Shown here piece by piece: positions 1 through 6,809 of a stretch of DNA of 6,809 nt (its first letter is position 1; the number at the start of each line of letters is the position of its first letter). The position numbers and the translations under genes were made by a program. Origin of the DNA: a virus. Taxonomy: Duplodnaviria; Heunggongvirae; Uroviricota; Caudoviricetes. The stretch lies in the IMG/VR virus record IMGVR_UViG_2802429221_000018; one strand, given 5' to 3'. The notes below the pieces were generated by a model that had not been told where the DNA came from, ran no database searches, and saw nothing but the letters and a program-made list of their open reading frames with translations.

Positions 1-1314
1 CTAACCCACTGATTTTAATAGGCCTCTTGTGTCACTTTGGTGACTATGGGACATCATTGGGACATAATCTGCCAGCTTCTGATTCAGCATTGCGATCTGT
101 TCTGCATTGCTGTCAGTCATCCATGCTCCGTATACATTGAACACCATCTGGGCACTTGCATGGCCCATCTGGCTGGCAATGAAGCTTGGATTTGCTCCGG
201 CAGATAATGACCAGCACGCATAAGTGTGTCGTGACTGGTATGCCTTTCGATGCCTGATGCCTGCACGTTTAATGGCTGTTTCCCATGAGTCGCCAATGGA
301 ATCTACCTTGTAGATAAAACCTACCTGTTTGCTTTTTCTAACCACCTGGGGGTTAAATACGAAAGTACATTCATGATTCACTGAACGTCCATATTCACGT
401 AGTTGAACCTTGATGTGGTGCTGCTTACCCAGTCTTGTCATTTCAGCCTGATTTTTCAGGACACTGATAGCGGGCTGGATAAGATGCACAACCCTGTTTG
501 TACTTGCTTCAGTTTTAGGTAGAGTGAACTCACCGAGTTTCGTATAATTGCGCCTGATAGTAATTGTTCCTGCTTTCAGATCGATATCTTCCCAGGCCAG
601 GGAGACCAGTTCACCATGACGCATTCCTGTGTACACAGCCAATGACCACAGGTTTTTTGTCTGCTGATGCCGGCAAGCATCTATCAGGCGAATAAATTCG
701 TCACGAGTTAGCGGATCTGGCTCTGCCCTGGCTCTTTTAAGAGGCTTAATTCCCTCGAAGGGATTTGCTTCTAAGTAACCGTGATCTGCAGCAAACTGAA
801 ACATTCCAGCGATTGTCGTCATATAATAATTTACAGTAACGACGCTCCGTCCTCTTGCTGGTGCTTTGTCTTTCGTTGAATTCTGATATCCGGTCAGCAA
901 ATCTTTCCTGATATACAGCAATTCCTCTTTGGTCACCGTTGACACCAGTCTGCTACCTCCAATTTTCGGAACCATCGTTCTTGCAACGGATTCATAGCGA
1001 TTGAATGCATTTGCAGAGATTTCCATGCGTTTCAGATCCAGCCACTTTTCTTCAAGCTCTTTCACCGTAATTTCTTTTTTATTTACCCCAAAAGCCCTGA
1101 GGTTAGGAGAGTCAGGGAACTGCGCAGCGTAATCAAAGTTTCCTGTACGAATGGCAAAACATACAGATGTCCGCAGCTCTCCGGCGATCTTCCTGTTCTT
1201 GGCAGTGTCAGGGACACCAAGGTTTTCCCTGACACGTTTACCTTTAAAATTAAACCAGATGCGTAATGTGCCACCGTGGTTTTCGACGCCTGTTGGATAT
1301 TTGACTTTATCCAT
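1..1314 (-). CDS. int: Phage integrase, lambda-family tyrosine recombinase with N-terminal arm-type DNA-binding domain
   Basis: 437-aa minus-strand ORF, ATG at 1314..1312 with GGAGG 5 nt upstream (minus sense), stop TAG at 3..1. N-terminus (YPTGVENHGGTLRIWFNFKGKRVRENLGV...FDYAAQFP) fits the arm-binding domain pattern of lambda-like integrases. C-terminal half has the tyrosine-recombinase catalytic pattern (RHRKAYQSRHTYA ... GHASAQMVFNVYGAW). Adjacent to an excisionase-like gene. Confidence 0.9.
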   Translation of the reverse strand: MDKVKYPTGVENHGGTLRIWFNFKGKRVRENLGVPDTAKNRKIAGELRTSVCFAIRTGNFDYAAQFPDSPNLRAFGVNKKEITVKELEEKWLDLKRMEISANAFNRYESVARTMVPKIGGSRLVSTVTKEELLYIRKDLLTGYQNSTKDKAPARGRSVVTVNYYMTTIAGMFQFAADHGYLEANPFEGIKPLKRARAEPDPLTRDEFIRLIDACRHQQTKNLWSLAVYTGMRHGELVSLAWEDIDLKAGTITIRRNYTKLGEFTLPKTEASTNRVVHLIQPAISVLKNQAEMTRLGKQHHIKVQLREYGRSVNHECTFVFNPQVVRKSKQVGFIYKVDSIGDSWETAIKRAGIRHRKAYQSRHTYACWSLSAGANPSFIASQMGHASAQMVFNVYGAWMTDSNAEQIAMLNQKLADYVPMMSHSHQSDTRGLLKSVG

Positions 1315-1369
1315 CGATACCTCCAGACGCCCAAGAGCGATACGAGCTTACATATTTCATGGTATTAAA

Positions 1370-1606
1370 TCACCTGGGTTGTTTGTTTTTCATTGAAGCG
1401 ACCCAGGCATCGATTGCTTTTCTGTTATACATACATTCGCTGGAAGGTTTTGGATTACCGTCAGGCGATACGTGAATATACTCTCTTCCTACCATCCAGC
1501 ATTCTTTCCGGGCCCGGAGAATTGTGCCTGGTTTGAGCCCGGTAATTGCGATAAGAACGCTTTCACAAACCCATTCATTGGGAGCCAGTTGAATCACATT
1601 GCCCAT
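1370..1606 (-). CDS. xis: Excisionase-like DNA-binding protein (Xis / putative excisionase family)
   Basis: 78-aa minus-strand ORF, ATG at 1606..1604 with GAGG upstream, stop TGA at 1372..1370, 55 bp upstream of int on the same strand. Sequence pattern (NEWV...ITGLKPGTILRARKEC...GREYIHV...YNRKAIDAWV) resembles small winged-helix excisionase-like proteins found beside prophage integrases. Family assignment is from memory, not a search. Confidence 0.65.
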   Translation of the reverse strand: MGNVIQLAPNEWVCESVLIAITGLKPGTILRARKECWMVGREYIHVSPDGNPKPSSECMYNRKAIDAWVASMKNKQPR

Positions 1607-1614
1607 GCATTACC

Positions 1615-1761
1615 TCACACAACACTCAGCCCACGGCAGTGGCACCACACTTCAAACATTCGTTTCACAATTTCACGGCAGTAGAAACCGTCAACATCTC
1701 GCGTCAGGTCATAGCGATTGCCGTAACGCTGGCGTACCCATAGCTCAAACGCTTTGTTCAT
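1615..1761 (-). CDS. Small hypothetical protein (48 aa, Cys/His-containing)
   Basis: ORF below the supplied track threshold, translated by hand: MNKAFELWVRQRYGNRYDLTRDVDGFYCREIVKRMFEVWCHCRGLSVV. ATG at 1761..1759 with AAGGAA 7 nt upstream; stop TGA at 1617..1615, 8 nt before the xis start. Tight packing between two supported genes on the same strand. Confidence 0.5.
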   Translation of the reverse strand: MNKAFELWVRQRYGNRYDLTRDVDGFYCREIVKRMFEVWCHCRGLSVV

Positions 1762-1764
1762 TCT

Positions 1765-2007
1765 TTATTTCCTTTTCATAGCCCGTAATTTTTTCAGATG
1801 AGTTTCCTGTTCTGTTTCTGCCAGAATTTGTCGGTATTCCTGGTGATCGAGTCGTTCAAACAGTTCATTAAAATCGTTTATTTTTACCGACTGTGTTCGC
1901 CCATCCATTCTTTTGTACAACACTGTGTTATTTATGCAGCGAATAATTTTTACCGGGTAACCGGCACTGTCGGTATACAGTTGCCCTTGATTAATCAAAG
2001 CGAACAT
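1765..2007 (-). CDS. Hypothetical phage protein (80 aa)
   Basis: Internal ATG (2007..2005) of track ORF 1765..2130, preceded by AGGAGA 5 nt upstream. The longer N-terminal extension would overlap the upstream gene. Stop TAA at 1767..1765, 3 nt before the next start. No recognisable domain. Confidence 0.55.
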   Translation of the reverse strand: MFALINQGQLYTDSAGYPVKIIRCINNTVLYKRMDGRTQSVKINDFNELFERLDHQEYRQILAETEQETHLKKLRAMKRK

Positions 2008-2038
2008 TTTTTCTCCTGCTCTCTGAATAGTGAGAACT

Positions 2039-2410
2039 TCAGAGCCGTATGTTTGTAGCGGGTTCAATACTGATAATTTCTGCTGAGATAAGCATCCCGG
2101 CAAGCCAGAGCTCTCCGGACAGGTCTTCATCCTGGCATGTCAGTTCGCCAATATTAATGGTAGCCATGATATCCGTTCCCCCTGTGCGCTCATTCTGGAC
2201 TTCTTCATAAGGTAGCGTTGCGTACAGGCTTTCAATAGCGCAACTGATAACATCCAGTCCGGTCAGATTGCCGCCGACAGTGACTTCGAATGTTTCGCGG
2301 TATTCCCATAGTCCGAAAGTTAATCGAACGGTTTGTTTTGCCATGCGTCCGCATGACGTCAGATTTGGGTCATAGTTCATTATTTGCGGTTGAGTATTCT
2401 GGGGGTTCAT
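2039..2410 (-). CDS. Hypothetical phage protein (123 aa)
   Basis: Track ORF 2039..2482. Start chosen at ATG 2410..2408 (MNPQNTQ...), which has AAGGGAAG upstream and leaves a 40-nt gap after the SPFH gene stop at 2451. The annotated 2482 start would overlap that gene. No recognisable domain. Confidence 0.5.
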   Translation of the reverse strand: MNPQNTQPQIMNYDPNLTSCGRMAKQTVRLTFGLWEYRETFEVTVGGNLTGLDVISCAIESLYATLPYEEVQNERTGGTDIMATINIGELTCQDEDLSGELWLAGMLISAEIISIEPATNIRL

Positions 2411-2450
2411 CTGATCTTCCCTTAGCCCGGCGACTTGCCGGGCATATAAG

Positions 2451-3278
2451 TTATTTAACCTGGATAAATGGTGTATTAGCACCGCTGGTCATGTATTGCG
2501 GCAGTGTGCCGTTCCATTTATTGATGGCTTCCAGCTCCATAACACCGGGGTTCTGGCGCAGAGCTTCACCGCGTAAACGAATAGCATCGGCTTCGGCCTG
2601 GGCTTTTGTGCGAATCGCATCAGCCTGTCCGGCAGCTTCCGCGCGCAACATGTTGGCTTCCGCTTCGCGCTGTTTAACTTCCTGCTCGCGCTGCAGTGTT
2701 TTCTGGTTCGCCGTGACTTTGGCATTAATGCTGTCGATAACAGTAGGCGGGTACTCCGGCTTACCCACATATGAGAGGCTCATTACCTGAATACCGATAG
2801 GTGTCATCTCTGCCTGAATGTCTTTAAGAGCTTCATCAAGCAGCTCAGACTTGCCGCCGTCGATAAATTTGTCAGTGGTCATTTTGCTGGCCAGTCGGTT
2901 GAGTGCGTCGGCGATCTTCTGGCGCAGGTCGGTGTCTGTAATGTCATCCACGCCTTTGCGGTAGGTCTGAAACACCGTGGTAACTTTGGATGGATCAACT
3001 TTGTAGGCCACGCCAATGTGATAGCCGATGGTTGTACCGTCACTCATCTGGAAACTGAACGGTTCATCGTAGGTCTTCATTTGCTTGAAGGTGGGGAAGA
3101 TGTAAACTTCAGTATTCCAGCCAGTCCAGTAGCGACCAACACCGACCACCTCACCGACGCCTTTGTCGTCGCCCAGTTTATTTACCTTGATGCCAACATT
3201 ACCTGGTTCAACGCGATCGCAACCGACAAGGCCAATAGTCGGCAGAATAATGGCTAAAGCAAAAATAATTTTTTTCAT
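2451..3278 (-). CDS. SPFH / band-7 (stomatin-prohibitin-flotillin-like) domain lipoprotein
   Basis: 275-aa ORF. N-terminus MKKIIFALAIILPTIGLVGC is a signal peptide ending in a lipobox (LVGC). The body has the SPFH-family pattern, followed by an Ala/Glu/Arg/Gln-rich coiled-coil stretch (REQEVKQREAEANMLRAEAAGQADAIRTKAQAEADAIRLRGEALRQNPGVMELEAINKWNGTLP) typical of C-terminal regions of bacterial SPFH proteins. SD TAAGGA upstream; ATGA start/stop overlap with the preceding 62-aa gene. Confidence 0.8.
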   Translation of the reverse strand: MKKIIFALAIILPTIGLVGCDRVEPGNVGIKVNKLGDDKGVGEVVGVGRYWTGWNTEVYIFPTFKQMKTYDEPFSFQMSDGTTIGYHIGVAYKVDPSKVTTVFQTYRKGVDDITDTDLRQKIADALNRLASKMTTDKFIDGGKSELLDEALKDIQAEMTPIGIQVMSLSYVGKPEYPPTVIDSINAKVTANQKTLQREQEVKQREAEANMLRAEAAGQADAIRTKAQAEADAIRLRGEALRQNPGVMELEAINKWNGTLPQYMTSGANTPFIQVK

Positions 3279-3463
3279 CTTTTATCCTTAGTGAAAGAAA
3301 GACCCTTGTAAATGGCATAAATGCAGGGCGGGGTCAGAAACGTCAGTGCAAAGCCAGAAATAACTGCTATCGTATCCTTCATGGATATAAGGAACGGAAC
3401 GAGTAATCCGTAAATGCATGCGATAATTGCCAGTAAAATTACTATTGTGAAATACAGTCTCAT
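3275..3463 (-). CDS. Small integral membrane protein, two predicted TM helices (possible NfeD-like partner of the SPFH protein)
   Basis: 62-aa ORF MRLYFTIVILLAIIACIYGLLVPFLISMKDTIAVISGFALTFLTPPCIYAIYKGLSFTKDKR with two hydrophobic segments. Its stop overlaps the SPFH start (ATGA at 3278..3275). SD is weak, so the start is uncertain. Confidence 0.55.
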   Translation of the reverse strand: MRLYFTIVILLAIIACIYGLLVPFLISMKDTIAVISGFALTFLTPPCIYAIYKGLSFTKDKR

Positions 3464-3486
3464 TGGTCTGTGGTATCCCGATATTT

Positions 3487-3594
3487 TTAACCGACTGACA
3501 GCGCAATAAAGAGAATAATGATTTCAGTTAGTGTCAGCACTGTGGCAAGGATTAAAATCAGTTTTACTCTGCTTAATTCACGGTTGCTTTTCAT
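3487..3594 (-). CDS. Putative 35-aa single-TM hydrophobic peptide
   Basis: Hand-translated from ATG 3594..3592: MKSNRELSRVKLILILATVLTLTEIIILFIALSVG, stop TAA at 3489..3487. Basic N-terminus followed by one hydrophobic helix. No convincing SD, so this may be non-coding. Confidence 0.3.
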   Translation of the reverse strand: MKSNRELSRVKLILILATVLTLTEIIILFIALSVG

Positions 3595-3605
3595 ATAAAC
3601 GGTTA

Positions 3606-3632
3606 GTAAAAAACGGAAGAATTATATTCTTC
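3606..3632 (-). terminator. Weak intrinsic-terminator-like hairpin followed by U-run (minus-strand sense)
   Basis: Inverted repeat GAAGAAT (3616-3622) / ATTCTTC (3626-3632) with a 3-nt loop. In minus-strand sense it is followed by CG and TTTTTT (plus A-run 3608-3613), directly after the TAA stop of the 193-aa gene. The stem is AT-rich, so stability is low. Confidence 0.35.
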
Positions 3633-3639
3633 TTAATAT

Positions 3640-4221
3640 TTAATGTGTCACTGGCGCTTCTGGCATACCATGAGTATTCAGGTCGTAAATCATTTCATCC
3701 AGAAGGAGTTCAAGCCCTTCGCGCCCCATAGCAGAGAGAATGAAACCATTATCAGGATCTGCGATGAGCATTTTTTGATAGAGAAACAGAACTCGCCCCA
3801 TGCCTTCAGCTTCGCCATATTTTTCAATAAATCTCCATTCGACATGGTTTTGCAGGGCAATGCGAAGTGGTCCGGGGTAGATACTCAGGCAACCATGTTT
3901 CCCCTTGTAAATAACTGCGCGATCTGTAGTTCCATTATCGTTAGGGATATCAACGGTACCGTTCTTGTCTTTCTCTTCATTTATAAACGTAGTCACATAC
4001 AGCCATCGCCATTGAGCAACTTTCATATCGACTGAAAATCGTCCCAGCAACCCTGCATCATCGGCTTCAGCAATACATTGCATGATTCTTAAACCGTGTG
4101 AGTTTGGATAATCGTATTCACCATCATTAAGTCGCTGTACGGCCTCAACATAATCAATGGTTGTATTGCCAATTTTTATGCCATGTGGCGTAACTTCTGG
4201 TTGGAACTCTGAATGATTCAT
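3640..4221 (-). CDS. Hypothetical protein (193 aa), distal gene of the accessory cassette
   Basis: Track ORF 3640..4296. Start chosen at internal ATG 4221..4219 (MNHSEFQPEV...), which has a strong AAGGAG SD 8 nt upstream and forms an ATGA start/stop overlap with the upstream 62-aa gene. Stop TAA at 3642..3640. No recognisable catalytic motif by eye. Confidence 0.7.
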   Translation of the reverse strand: MNHSEFQPEVTPHGIKIGNTTIDYVEAVQRLNDGEYDYPNSHGLRIMQCIAEADDAGLLGRFSVDMKVAQWRWLYVTTFINEEKDKNGTVDIPNDNGTTDRAVIYKGKHGCLSIYPGPLRIALQNHVEWRFIEKYGEAEGMGRVLFLYQKMLIADPDNGFILSAMGREGLELLLDEMIYDLNTHGMPEAPVTH

Positions 4222-4406
4222 AATGTTTTCTCCTTTGCTGGTGGAATAATTGTGTAGCCAGCTCTTTTTGCCATCCACAGAAATGTATCCATGCAACCAA
4301 CGAATTCATTATCCAACAGATGTTTTGAGTAAATTACTTCACCATTTTCAATGGTTAGCAACACTCTTACTTTTTTATGTGTTATGTTCTGTTGTTTTTC
4401 TTCCAT
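4218..4406 (-). CDS. Hypothetical small protein (62 aa), translationally coupled to the 193-aa gene
   Basis: Track ORF 4218..4421. Start chosen at ATG 4406..4404 (MEEKQQNITHKK...), with GGGAGA 7 nt upstream. Stop TGA overlaps the ATG of the downstream gene (TTATGA at 4223..4218). Confidence 0.6.
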   Translation of the reverse strand: MEEKQQNITHKKVRVLLTIENGEVIYSKHLLDNEFVGCMDTFLWMAKRAGYTIIPPAKEKTL

Positions 4407-4410
4407 TGAC

Positions 4411-4524
4411 TTATCTCCCATATGCTTTGCGCAAATACAGGCTGGCTATATGAAGATAAGAATCTCCATGTTGTGCAATGAGGCAGGCAGTTTTATACGA
4501 TGCCTTATGTTTCAGGAAAGTCAT
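4411..4524 (-). CDS. Putative 37-aa peptide
   Basis: Hand-translated from ATG 4524..4522: MTFLKHKASYKTACLIAQHGDSYLHIASLYLRKAYGR, stop TAA 4413..4411. Strong SD AGGAGA 7 nt upstream. The SD of the next gene lies in its last codons. Short, so uncertain. Confidence 0.35.
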   Translation of the reverse strand: MTFLKHKASYKTACLIAQHGDSYLHIASLYLRKAYGR

Positions 4525-4602
4525 AACATAATCTCCTGCGAATAAAGGTTGCAACAATCCCCGACGATAAAACCGTAATAAACATTCAGGGAATATTTAT
4601 TG

Positions 4603-4968
4603 TTATTGCGCTAATTCTTTTTCGGCAGCAGATTTTGCATATTCACATGCAAAATTCAGAATTTCGCTGCCAAGTGTTTTTGTTTCGTGATTACTTGACA
4701 TATGTAATACCTGTGTTGCATGCAATAAATGATAAACATTTACCGCAAATGAGTCAGGCTCCAGACAAATGCCTTCATAATCATCTTGTTGTGAGGTTGT
4801 TTCTGTCATTGCTCCTGAAGTGCATGCGAGCCTGTTTTTGACAATTCTCTTTCCTCTAATCACTATATCGGCAACATCTATTGCCTTTACAACCTCCGGG
4901 AGAAGTTCCGGGTTTGTATAATCAAAGTCATCAACATGGAGAACAGTTATGTTTTCGAACTTTTTCAT
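4603..4968 (-). CDS. Hypothetical protein (121 aa), first gene of the accessory cassette
   Basis: ATG at 4968..4966 with GAGGAAG 5 nt upstream; stop TAA at 4605..4603. Translation MKKFENITVLHVDDFDYTNPELLPEVVKAIDVADIVIRGKRIVKNR... has no domain I can name. Confidence 0.65.
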   Translation of the reverse strand: MKKFENITVLHVDDFDYTNPELLPEVVKAIDVADIVIRGKRIVKNRLACTSGAMTETTSQQDDYEGICLEPDSFAVNVYHLLHATQVLHMSSNHETKTLGSEILNFACEYAKSAAEKELAQ

Positions 4969-5096
4969 GGCTTCCTCAGCTGACTTATATGTTCTGCTAT
5001 ATAGCGAGTCTCAGAAGTGTTTTCATATTGAGACTGTTTCCGCAATGATTGATAAAAATGTTCGCATGTACCTTGAGGGGCGAAGCGGTGATTATG
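4969..5096 (-). promoter_or_regulatory. Intergenic control region upstream of the 121-aa gene, with palindrome and inverted repeat
   Basis: 128-bp non-coding gap between two minus-strand genes. Perfect 10-bp palindrome GCTATATAGC (4996-5005); inverted repeat AGTCTCA (5007-5013) / TGAGACT (5029-5035); weak hairpin plus T-run in minus sense (5054-5085) that could terminate the upstream HTH gene. Promoter hexamers not confidently placed. Confidence 0.35.
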
Positions 5097-5615
5097 TCAC
5101 CATTGGTATTGGTTCTTCCGTAGAAGAGCTTCGCGAGATAAGGAGCAAACTTGTTGAGATGCGTCATGGTGTTGCTGCTCCTCACTTTTTGGTTGCTCCG
5201 GAGGAGTAACCTCGCCAGTTAACAGCCACATCGGATCGCAGCCAAGAATATTTGCCAGTGGGATAAGCATACTGATAGTTGGTTCATACTCTCCGCTCTC
5301 CCACTGGATGATGATTTCTTCATCGAGATCGAGCAGCCTGGCGAGTTCGGCGGTTGTTAAGCCGCAGGCTTCGCGTTGGGTGCGAAGGCGGGAACTAATA
5401 GTCACCATAGCAAGGTGACGGCAAGATTTAGTGCGCTCTTGTCTTCTTTGTGAAAAATCTTCTTGTGCAAGAGAAGATGCCAGTTCAGCTGAAATTAGAA
5501 GTAATGAATATGAAACATCTCGCTCTTTCTCGGTACCTGAAGACAACAAGCAGGCTGCGTTAAGGGATGCAGAAAGCTTGTTGATGTCATCTATAGCGTC
5601 AATAAAATCGATCAT
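5097..5615 (-). CDS. HTH-XRE family DNA-binding protein with an additional ~69-aa N-terminal region
   Basis: 172-aa ORF, ATG at 5615..5613 with GGAG upstream, stop TGA 5099..5097. Residues ~70-136 (TISSRLRTQREACGLTTAELARLLDLDEEIIIQWESGEYEPTISMLIPLANILGCDPMWLLTGE) are a textbook Cro/CI-type helix-turn-helix. The N-terminal 69 aa and C-terminal ~36 aa are unassigned. Confidence 0.7.
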   Translation of the reverse strand: MIDFIDAIDDINKLSASLNAACLLSSGTEKERDVSYSLLLISAELASSLAQEDFSQRRQERTKSCRHLAMVTISSRLRTQREACGLTTAELARLLDLDEEIIIQWESGEYEPTISMLIPLANILGCDPMWLLTGEVTPPEQPKSEEQQHHDASQQVCSLSREALLRKNQYQW

Positions 5616-5655
5616 TTCTCAAAGCTCCAATAATGCGCTGTGAGGTAATGATTTA

Positions 5656-5681
5656 TCAACTATAATTGATAGTCAAGTATA
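5656..5681. promoter_or_regulatory. Operator-like sites between the repressor gene and the HTH gene (OL-like)
   Basis: TCAACTATAATTGA (5656-5669) matches the perfect palindrome at 6177-6190 in 12 of 14 positions. The adjacent TCAAGTATA (5673-5681) is an exact left half-site. A TTGACT hexamer is present on the minus strand. Confidence 0.45.
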
Positions 5682-5683
5682 AT

Positions 5684-6169
5684 TTAGTCTTTTTGATTGA
5701 GTTTTTGCGTGATTAGCAAGATGTTTTTTGAGTGTTCTTCCAGAAGATTTTTTGCAAAATCCAACACCTTTACCCTCTCTTTTGTGGGTAAATTCGCAAA
5801 TATTTCAAATAAATAGCTTGTATCCTCAATGATTGTTGGATCTATAGATTCAATAATACCTCGTATCAGTTTGTTGCTCATTGAATCAAAAAGAGTTTCT
5901 CCATTCTCCCGGGTAAGTGTGTACTTAGGTTTTTCTGTGTTTCCATTTAAAAGCCACTGTACGTCGCACTGTAATAGTTCTGATAATTTCAATAACTTAT
6001 CGCTAGTTATGCTTGTCTTTCCTTTCTCCCATAAAGATACAGCAGCCATTGATACCCCCATTGCTTGTGCCAGCTTTAATTGACTTAAACCAAGTTCTTT
6101 TCTGCGTGACAGAATCCTGTGCCCCATTGAGAGTGGAGAAGACTGACATGACTTTAGTTTTGTGTTCAT
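5684..6169 (-). CDS. Prophage repressor (CI / RacR-like), N-terminal HTH-XRE domain
   Basis: Track ORF 5684..6232 starts at a TTG with no SD. Start chosen at ATG 6169..6167 (MNTKLKS...) with GAGGG 5 nt upstream. Residues ~15-75 (MGHRILSRRKELGLSQLKLAQAMGVSMAAVSLWEKGKTSITSDKLLKLSELLQCDVQWLL) are a clear XRE-type HTH. Divergent from a Cro-like gene across an operator-bearing region. Confidence 0.75.
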   Translation of the reverse strand: MNTKLKSCQSSPLSMGHRILSRRKELGLSQLKLAQAMGVSMAAVSLWEKGKTSITSDKLLKLSELLQCDVQWLLNGNTEKPKYTLTRENGETLFDSMSNKLIRGIIESIDPTIIEDTSYLFEIFANLPTKERVKVLDFAKNLLEEHSKNILLITQKLNQKD

Positions 6170-6249
6170 ATTGCCCTCAAGTATACTTGATAGTAGGATT
6201 GTGTTGTAGGCCCTGTCGCTAAGCTTAATCAATTAATGTTGAGGTCTCA
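6170..6249. promoter_or_regulatory. Divergent promoter/operator region of the immunity switch
   Basis: 80-bp gap between divergent HTH genes. Perfect 14-bp palindrome TCAAGTATACTTGA (6177-6190) abuts the repressor SD; related site TCAATTAATGTTGA (6229-6242) overlaps the cro SD. Both share TCAA-N6-TTGA arms. Exact -35/-10 hexamers could not be assigned with confidence. Confidence 0.6.
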
Positions 6250-6489
6250 ATGATAAAGATTAGTGCAATTAAGTTTTATGGTTCGCAAAGAGCGATTGCT
6301 CAATCACTGGGGATTAGCGAGCAAGCTGTTTCTCAATGGCCAGAACTCATTCCTAAAGGCGCAGCTCTGGAGCTTGAGAAACTAACCGCTGGGGCTCTGA
6401 AGTGCGATCTGAACCTGTACAAGAACCGCTCGCGCAAAAACAAGCGTGGAGCACACTCAAGTTTAGCGCACACAGAGGACGGAGAGTGA
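6250..6489 (+). CDS. Cro-like HTH transcriptional regulator (YdaS/Cro family)
   Basis: 79-aa ORF, ATG 6250 with GAGG 5 nt upstream, stop TGA 6487-6489. Translation MIKISAIKFYGSQRAIAQSLGISEQAVSQWPELIPKGAALELEKLTAGAL... fits small Cro/YdaS-type HTH proteins encoded divergently from prophage repressors. Confidence 0.7.
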   Translation: MIKISAIKFYGSQRAIAQSLGISEQAVSQWPELIPKGAALELEKLTAGALKCDLNLYKNRSRKNKRGAHSSLAHTEDGE

Positions 6490-6809
6490 GGGGAGTGTAC
6501 GTTGATCGTAGAGAAATACCTCCTGATTGCGTGCAGATAGACATGCCCTCGGCTTATAGCTCAGCAGATGCTGAGTGGATTAAGCAGCAGTTACTTAGCC
6601 TGACACTCACGGCACGACAAAAAGCCATCCAGCGTTATGCCGTTGTGTATCAGGAGGCATTTGAGGCCGAACCCATTTCGTACCGCAAGGAGAACCGGGC
6701 AAGGCATGAAGCAAACACAAGGCTTCGCCTGTTTGTGAGAAATCAGGGCAGAGCTTTACAGGGGTATACCGCCGAACCTCCCCTAGCTGGAACGCAATCG
6801 CGATCCTGA
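6486..6809 (+). CDS. Hypothetical early-right operon protein, 3' end beyond window
   Basis: Open frame 6402..6809 running off the window end. Plausible start at GTG 6486, overlapping the cro stop (GTGA) with GAGGA/GGAG just upstream; the alternative ATG at 6543 has poor SD. No confident family assignment. Confidence 0.45.
   Translation: MRGVYVDRREIPPDCVQIDMPSAYSSADAEWIKQQLLSLTLTARQKAIQRYAVVYQEAFEAEPISYRKENRARHEANTRLRLFVRNQGRALQGYTAEPPLAGTQSRS

Follow-up and report, generated by a model that had tools for sequence, protein, structure and literature searches.

Comparative analysis of a 6,809-base window (the whole stretch of DNA that was analyzed, IMG/VR record IMGVR_UViG_2802429221_000018, Caudoviricetes), which is the left arm of a lambdoid, phiP27-type Escherichia coli prophage, identified an SPFH/Band-7 lipoprotein gene and an overlapping upstream gene for a 62-residue partner protein with two transmembrane (TM) helices. 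The two genes almost certainly form a co-inherited unit that is old and distributed over many bacterial phyla. The SPFH gene is already known as an annotated member of a large phage family, and the new element is this tight, phylum-spanning pairing with a second gene. As a tentative overall explanation, and the best one available, the pair may be a module that the phage expresses early and that forms a cage like that of HflK/C, set on the periplasmic side of the inner membrane and enclosing the partner protein.

The SPFH lipoprotein and its two-helix partner

The 275-residue SPFH protein was recognized by the Pfam Band_7 family (PF01145) over residues 22-208 (109.2 bits against a cut-off of 23.6, E=3e-31) and, in the PHROG profile search, by phrog_200 "lipoprotein" over residues 1-274 (E=2.9e-114), and it is 99.6% identical in amino-acid sequence to L05 of phage phiP27. 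The N-terminus, read from the translation as MKKIIFALAIILPTIGLVGC followed by DRVE, is a canonical lipobox with a charged N-region, a hydrophobic stretch, and the pattern [LVI][ASTVI][GAS]C near residue 20 (coordinates in Table 1). A pattern search located the lipobox in 110 of 134 related loci, and the residue following the lipobox cysteine (+2), an Asp in the window protein, was Asp in 71 of these loci, Ser in 27, and Tyr in 6. Asp at +2 is the classical Lol-avoidance signal in E. coli and leads to inner membrane retention. An inner membrane location is also favored because some distant SPFH homologs carry an N-terminal TM helix in place of the lipobox. An initial annotation, made from the letters of the window alone, had proposed the SPFH domain, the lipoprotein signal, and an ATGA coupling to the upstream two-helix protein, and all three were borne out.

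The phiP27 record labels L05 a "putative serine protease" and RefSeq now lists it as "lipoprotein." The protease label persists in records of the SPFH protein from Shiga toxin (Stx) phages, Klebsiella, Kosakonia, and Kaistia, and some Pseudomonas homologs are labeled "transposase." Domain searches detected neither a protease nor a transposase domain in the SPFH protein, and "putative serine protease," still in circulation, is a misnomer.

The upstream 62-residue open reading frame (ORF) encodes two hydrophobic helices and matched phrog_1130 "membrane protein" over residues 1-61 (E=1.1e-22). The ATGA-coupled ORF was intact in 79 of 80 near-identical IMG/VR loci (the close loci), no upstream ORF being readable in the 80th. 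Judged from the overlapping stop and start codons and from a Shine-Dalgarno sequence inside the partner gene, the partner and the SPFH lipoprotein are translationally coupled, and their overlap and adjacency suggest that they are also co-transcribed. Among close relatives, the ratio of non-synonymous to synonymous polymorphism (pN/pS) was 0.03 for the SPFH gene, with variable sites distributed 16/13/135 over the three codon positions, and 0.22 for the 62-residue ORF, values by which both are considered to be under purifying selection and not to be mere chance ORFs.

The turn between the two helices was conserved among 128 unique partners at P (93%), L/M (95%), I/V/L (90%), S (94%), and S/D/N (94%), as was a Gly in the second TM helix (95%). 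Lys plus Arg residues averaged 2.1 on the N-terminal side and 3.4 in the C-terminal tail of the partners but 0.46 in the loop; the positive charges thus lie to either side of the hairpin and not at its turn, which predicts that both termini are cytoplasmic (N-in/C-in) and that the motif is periplasmic. The depositors of phage KpCHEMY26 remarked on its partner as "2 TMDs N in C in."

The arrangement of a small membrane protein gene next to an SPFH gene does resemble chromosomal NfeD-SPFH pairs, as had been suggested from the sequence, but the resemblance does not extend to an NfeD/OB domain in the partner. Pfam, including NfeD/OB (PF01957), gave no match to the partner at E≤0.1 and NCBIfam was likewise without a match, and a profile search of 1.84 billion representative proteins returned 89 relatives, every one of 36-91 residues. 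Since no relative is longer, the partner is regarded as a stand-alone mini-protein and not as an NfeD-type fragment.

An AlphaFold2 monomer model of the SPFH protein, built from a 53-sequence alignment (mean predicted local distance difference test score, pLDDT, of 80), comprised an SPFH alpha/beta domain at approximately residues 20-175 with strands in 20-94 and 163-175, a single 65-residue helix (178-242), a short helix, and a low-confidence tail. In the alignment, the C-terminal tail holds the most conserved motif of the family, (E/N)KW(N/D)G-LP-YM...PF. Full-length Foldseek searches against the PDB were led by prohibitin, HflC, and HflK (E of approximately 1e-14), followed by erlin, stomatin, flotillin, and QmcA, so that subunits of all solved SPFH cages were matched, at E values from 3e-14 to 2e-7. 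By sequence, the nearest among solved structures and NCBIfam models were prohibitin-2, HflK, and HflC (E of approximately 1e-5). The NCBIfam scores for the TIGR01932/TIGR01933 pair, 25.9 bits for hflC against a cut-off of 134.4 and 23.1 for hflK against 159.4, indicate that the SPFH protein is not an HflK or HflC equivalog.

Distribution and boundaries of the two-gene unit

An SPFH homolog was identified by tblastn in 742 phage records, including those of strictly lytic groups, namely N4-like Schitoviridae, rV5-like Vequintavirinae, jumbo phages, Pseudomonas PaP3-like phages, Otagovirus, Staphylococcus Kayvirus, haloarchaeal viruses, crAss-like phages, and Lak phages. Homologs of the 62-residue protein were found in 69 phage records and adjoin the SPFH gene wherever positions were compared. 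The module also matched 570 of 5426 complete E. coli genomes (approximately 10%) at 659 places, 240 of which were on plasmids, the carriers including Stx-converting prophages and P1-like phage-plasmids. The module had initially been described as unusual, a view that does not stand as PHROG 200 occurs in hundreds of temperate and virulent phages and the gene is annotated as L05 in phiP27.

A gene for a protein of 61-84 residues that overlaps or abuts the SPFH start was found in a Klebsiella prophage, phages GAP31 and KpCHEMY26, P2-like phage P88, Erwinia phage S6, N4-species phage VEc25, Pseudomonas phages Ostro and 16Q, and an Alcaligenes phage. The partner gene is often missed in annotation, being absent from that of phiP27 and present and unannotated in Burkholderia phage vB_RY3 and the P1-like phage-plasmids. 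Over the 134 diverse viral loci, a small two-TM ORF ended within a few nucleotides of the SPFH start in 117, the misses being mostly artefacts of start-codon or TM calling, and overlaps of 1-8 nucleotides or gaps of a few nucleotides are the rule at the junction in distant loci. A hidden Markov model (HMM) of seven enterobacterial partners was searched against 1342 ORFs from both strands of 57 distant loci; each of its top 40 matches (26 at E<1e-3) was the ORF that directly precedes the SPFH gene, and the first off-target match appeared only at E=0.2. Among bacterial loci, taken as one genome per species, the partner preceded the SPFH gene in 65 of 80, and the loci with a pair span Enterobacterales, approximately 30 Dyella species, Pseudomonas, Sutterella, Leptospira, Bacteroidota, Saprospirales, and Caulobacterales.

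In-frame fusions of partner, signal peptide, and SPFH protein were identified at loci L272 (1309-2460), L279 (1165-2346), and L281 (1294-2313) and in NCBI protein P0003, the hosts being an Iamiaceae metagenome-assembled genome (MAG), an unclassified MAG, an Eubacteriaceae MAG, and a P1-like E. coli element, with assembly or sequencing errors possible. In the fusions, the two partner helices are followed by the former signal peptide as a third TM helix, an order that leads to an SPFH domain outside the cytoplasm. These natural fusions are Rosetta-stone evidence that both products act together. Upstream of the pair, the neighboring genes in eight other phages belonged to eight unrelated PHROGs, and the conserved unit is therefore exactly two genes; a third conserved gene in the module was rejected on the same diversity of neighbors.

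The partner HMM detected no homology in Kayvirus MbpV or in the neighbors of the SPFH gene in a haloarchaeal virus and a crAss-like phage, and the two-TM partner is therefore taken to be confined to the closer SPFH subfamily. Distant phage SPFH genes (approximately 25% identity) have non-homologous small membrane neighbors in Kayvirus MbpV/MbpS and haloarchaeal gp80/gp81, and that of the crAss-like phage has no small membrane neighbor. In Staphylococcus phage A5W (L312, 654-1753), the TM-anchored mbpS overlaps the upstream one-TM mbpV.

The pair was present in nearly every sampled Dyella genome (L244-L310, approximately 30 Dyella/Rhodanobacteraceae species), where it may be a vertically inherited, domesticated chromosomal copy rather than a prophage gene pair. 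In the E. coli P1-like phage-plasmid pGA_Eco1 (L094, 1708-4362), the SPFH gene and an unannotated 72-residue partner (3794-4012) sit among tRNA genes and adjoin a gene of the Thoeris anti-defense Tad2 family. An IS1-type end, GGTAATGACTCCAACTTATTGAT, was located exactly at the partner/SPFH junction in L232 and L233, from the chromosomes of Shigella flexneri SFBU1023 and E. coli ECMA0423; with the IS1-type insertion (L232, 712-734 and 733-1500) the two genes are 768 nucleotides apart, GGATAAAAG is duplicated, and the partner ORF is a few codons longer.

Prophage context and expression

The window shared 97.5% identity with the Stx2e phage phiP27 (AJ298298/NC_003356) across positions 1-5391, and the module shared 99.7% identity with a prophage of the porcine E. 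coli UMNF18. The gene order on the minus strand is cI-like repressor, helix-turn-helix (HTH) protein, L08, L07, L06, the module, L04 (DUF5406), L03 (DUF4222), xis, and int. As the module lies between the immunity region and xis-int, it is assigned to the leftward early (PL-type) operon and not to a block expressed in lysogeny. The likeness to phiP27 ends at approximately 5391, and the region of the cI-like, cro-like, and HTH genes (window 5392-6809) is unlike phiP27, so that the prophage is expected to be heteroimmune to it.

Gene overlaps link the pair into a chain with early genes in Stx phages, phage P88, and the Klebsiella prophage, and the pair lies in the early regions of the lytic phages KpCHEMY26, GAP31, S6, N4-type VEc25, and Pseudomonas phage 16Q, the pairs of lytic phages being situated among early or DNA-metabolism genes. 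From this context, early lytic rather than lysogenic expression of the module is probable. The earlier placement of the module in a "lysogenic region," with exclusion expressed from the prophage, is not supported, given the occurrence of the pair in early lytic operons and in strictly lytic phages. A promoter/terminator consensus scan found neither element flanking the module, and match counts were at or below shuffled expectation.

Table 1. Features of the window, with positions counted from its first base.
Feature	Position	Strand	Basis
SPFH/Band-7 lipoprotein gene, 275 residues, equal to phiP27 L05	2451-3278	minus	Pfam, PHROG, model, selection
Lipoprotein signal peptide, lipobox L-V-G-C (Cys20), Asp at +2	3219-3278	minus	read from translation
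Two-TM partner, 62 residues, predicted N-in/C-in, turn motif V-P-x-L-I-S-x-K-D-T	3275-3463	minus	phrog_1130, conservation
ATGA overlap of partner stop and SPFH start	3275-3278	minus	read from sequence
AAGGA Shine-Dalgarno sequence for the SPFH gene, within the partner coding sequence	3285-3289	minus	read from sequence
Hydrophobic 35-residue ORF, doubtful, lineage-specific	3487-3594	minus	locus comparison
Weak hairpin GAAGAAU-AUA-AUUCUUC (3616-3632), then U6 run, after the L06 stop	3608-3632	minus	folding
HTH protein	5097-5615	minus	
cI-like repressor	5684-6232	minus	
cro-like gene, divergent from the cI-like gene	6250-6489	plus	

A 35-residue hydrophobic ORF just upstream of the pair had initially been counted as part of the module. 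The open frame exists, but its standing as a conserved member did not hold up, and it is improbable that this single-helix peptide is a genuine third subunit of a three-component module. The frame was open in 49 of the 50 loci that carry its block, its replacements were conservative and hydrophobic, and its pN/pS of 0.53 was below that of the other two frames (1.18 and 0.85). However, the ORF was present in 49 of the 80 close loci, always with the L06-type upstream block, and missing in 30, where other genes precede the pair; in L035 its start codon is changed from ATG to ATA, no Shine-Dalgarno sequence was found upstream of it, the distribution of variable sites over codon positions (10/4/10) was suggestive and not significant, and it lacks homologs at the distant pairs with their eight unrelated upstream PHROGs. 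In loci with a different upstream gene, homology breaks exactly at the start of the 62-residue ORF, the 35-residue ORF is missing, and a strong CAGGAGG Shine-Dalgarno sequence precedes the partner ATG. The peptide had no family match in Pfam or PHROG, and tblastn returned no match, not even to phiP27, which is probably an effect of the BLAST low-complexity filter; conservation of the ORF was judged by direct locus comparison. By these sequence comparisons, the 35-residue ORF is a real open frame that is weakly supported as a gene and lies outside the conserved unit.

The hairpin after L06 has a folding energy of -4.9 kcal/mol (z = -1.57) and is mostly conserved in the close loci. It was not called by a terminator scan and is at best a leaky terminator. 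Downstream of the module, L04 is annotated with a GTG start at 2482, which gives a 32-nucleotide overlap with the SPFH 3' end, and the L04 matches to PHROG and Pfam start only from residues 25-36; the ATG at 2410, with a AAGGGAAG ribosome-binding site, is the more likely start. G+C content was 0.50-0.55 in the SPFH gene and 0.36-0.45 in the partner, the 35-residue ORF, and the upstream early genes, the step being located within the two-gene unit (window 2350-3250 versus 3250-4750). Scans of the window for Rfam families (E≤1) and tRNAs gave no matches.

Proposed function and relation to known systems

In the proposed mechanism, the SPFH protein would be exported, lipid-modified at Cys20, and kept in the inner membrane by Asp at +2, so that the SPFH domain would face the periplasm as in HflK/HflC. 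Prohibitin, HflK/C, and erlin are the SPFH proteins whose domain faces away from the cytosol, as that of an exported lipoprotein would. The partner, with both termini in the cytoplasm, would hold its P-x-L-I-S-x-K-D-T turn in the periplasm at the foot of the SPFH domain, and copies of the lipoprotein are predicted from the model to associate by way of the 65-residue helix and the conserved C-terminal motif, forming a dome that covers part of the inner membrane. The partner turn may contact the membrane-proximal SPFH domain, the partner acting as anchor, nucleator, or enclosed client. A periplasm-facing cage in the inner membrane is the architecture toward which the model inclines, with somewhat better than even confidence. 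The module would be transcribed with the early lytic genes, in the PL-type operon in this prophage, and not from the repressed prophage, and the cage might sequester inner membrane machinery as HflK/C cages FtsH, with FtsH as the prime candidate and tuned membrane proteolysis as the result.

The choice of FtsH is based on the structural affinity to HflK/C and on the location within a PL-type operon, since the CIII protein encoded in that of lambda is an FtsH inhibitor. By analogy, sequestration of FtsH or another protease is a doubtful but leading candidate for the pay-off of the cage, ranked ahead of superinfection exclusion and of envelope stabilization or lysis timing, each of which is less likely again.

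Several observations weigh against the cage and its proposed client. The model has a predicted template modeling score of 0.56 and a C-terminus with pLDDT below 50, and the cage is extrapolated from a monomer. The likeness to HflK/C in sequence is weak, and there is one SPFH gene and not a K/C pair. Homologs with Ser, Glu, or Thr at +2 may be sorted to the outer membrane, and the hairpin and U-run upstream leave some, if weak, room for separate regulation of the module. Virulent phages have no lysis-lysogeny decision to tune. The spread across phyla together with the strongly conserved private partner fits recognition of FtsH or another host protein less well, and better favors a self-contained, host-independent action.

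Superinfection exclusion, in lytic growth or in lysogens, is the foremost rival, although unlikely. Here the cage and partner would stop incoming phages at the inner membrane, either when the tail tip inserts or when DNA is injected, as T4 Imm/Sp, P22 SieA, and TP-J34 Ltp do. Where a function is known for phage envelope proteins expressed early or from a prophage, it is mostly exclusion, and injection takes place at the periplasmic face of the inner membrane, where the pair is predicted to lie. A gene annotated as "superinfection exclusion" adjoins the SPFH gene in N4-type VEc25 (phrog_1510) and in Vi01-like PhiSH19 (PMC3220722). The phrog_1510 gene of VEc25 (L089, 607-921) lies just upstream of the pair and encodes an acidic protein of 104 residues with no signal peptide or TM helix. 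The defense role raised in the initial annotation found no counterpart in PADLOC-DB v2, where no model matched the SPFH protein, the partner, the 35-residue peptide, or five neighboring proteins at E≤0.1, and the literature search found no report tying a phage SPFH protein to exclusion or defense. Furthermore, the pairs of temperate phages lie in early lytic operons and are probably not expressed as morons, a cage over small membrane patches is an odd means of blocking entry, and a host range spanning many phyla makes a host-receptor-specific block unlikely. Superinfection exclusion could still operate during lytic growth.

A function as envelope stabilizer or lysis timer is rated marginally lower. 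The cage could reinforce or compartmentalize the inner membrane of the infected cell, keep the proton-motive force after injection, and restrain premature holin triggering or lysis from without, or else gate a pore formed by the partner. Such a role would suit a pair that is self-contained, host-independent, and kept across phyla, and the partner is pinholin-like in size and in N-in/C-in topology. Kayvirus mbpS and mbpV lie between the endolysin gene lysK and the transglycosylase gene tgl, the SPFH gene of a crAss-like phage is near a peptidoglycan hydrolase gene, and host SPFH proteins are tied to membrane stress tolerance (PMC10434171). In contrast, the lysis cassettes of lambdoid, P2-like, and N4-like phages are distant from the pair, which is placed among early or DNA-metabolism genes.

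A lysogenic-conversion lipoprotein that benefits the lysogen within an animal, by promoting virulence or modulating immunity, is very improbable: the module is frequent in Stx-converting phages, and the SPFH protein PM0222 of Pasteurella multocida, a TLR1/2-activating virulence factor from a lambda-like prophage island, leaves the cell in outer-membrane vesicles and is needed for mouse virulence (PMC9872710), but the same pair occurs in phages that are strictly lytic and in others that infect environmental bacteria, its context is an early operon, TLR2 is activated by any triacylated lipoprotein, and PM0222 is likened to the phiP27-type subfamily from its description as an SPFH protein.

In the literature search, an experimental function for a phage SPFH protein was found only for Pasteurella PM0222, and phage genome papers note SPFH genes and call their role unclear (PMC8540360, PMC13239085, PMC4936722, PMC1524935). 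The obligate partner, its motif, and the fusions were in no paper found.

SPFH cages (HflK/C, prohibitin, flotillin, erlin, and stomatin) have been visualized only recently. The phage version is an SPFH system cut down to one lipoprotein and one protein of approximately 60 residues, is very widespread, and is also carried by classic lytic N4-type model phages. The broader proposal is that the pair represents an undescribed SPFH class, a phage-borne, lipid-anchored, periplasm-facing cage with an obligate P-x-L-I-S hairpin unrelated to NfeD, deployed early in infection by phages of many bacterial phyla that would thereby commandeer part of the host inner membrane, perhaps as a prison for FtsH or as a gate or seal that keeps competitors out. 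This is a speculative proposal, less likely than the early cage module itself; if true, the pair would make a pared-down, portable model for studying how SPFH cages assemble and capture clients. Assembled as predicted, it would provide a compact, genetically tractable cage system and a new phage function in host takeover or competition.

Among known systems, the pair is related by direct membership to PHROG 200, PHROG 1130, and phiP27 L05, families without assigned function. T4 Imm/Sp, T5 Llp, TP-J34 Ltp, and P22 SieA are generally known as early or prophage-expressed small inner membrane proteins and/or lipoproteins and may be functional analogs, although no sequence or fold relationship to them was detected. 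Pasteurella PM0222, compared by description only, is likewise a prophage-borne, HflK/C-like SPFH protein. Kayvirus MbpV/MbpS shares the arrangement of a phage SPFH gene, mbpS, overlapping an upstream membrane protein gene; it differs in that MbpS is TM-anchored and approximately 26% identical and in that MbpV, with a single TM helix, shows no homology to the two-TM partner.

The NfeD-SPFH operons (QmcA-YbbJ, 8Z5G; Pyrococcus horikoshii stomatin-STOPP) share an adjoining, co-directional gene for a small membrane protein and the idea of a partner within or under the cage, and QmcA is a Foldseek match (E=7e-8). The phage partner, however, is without the NfeD/OB domain, and QmcA faces the cytoplasm whereas the phage SPFH protein is predicted to be exported. 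The prohibitin and erlin cages (8RRH, 9O9Z, 9VVJ) gave the top full-length fold matches and the top sequence match in the helix region and also hold the SPFH domain away from the cytosol, but are eukaryotic heteromers with TM anchors and approximately 15-17% identity. The E. coli HflK/HflC-FtsH complex (7VHP, 7WI3, 9CZ2) differs in its K/C heteropair, compared with one SPFH gene and a dedicated 62-residue partner in the phage, and in its N-terminal TM helix in place of a lipid anchor, the phage protein scoring 26 bits against the 134-bit hflC cut-off. It is nevertheless alike in having an SPFH domain followed by a long helix, in placing that domain on the periplasmic face of the inner membrane, as is predicted for the phage protein, in ranking among the best structure and sequence matches, and in a past link to phages through lambda lysogenization.

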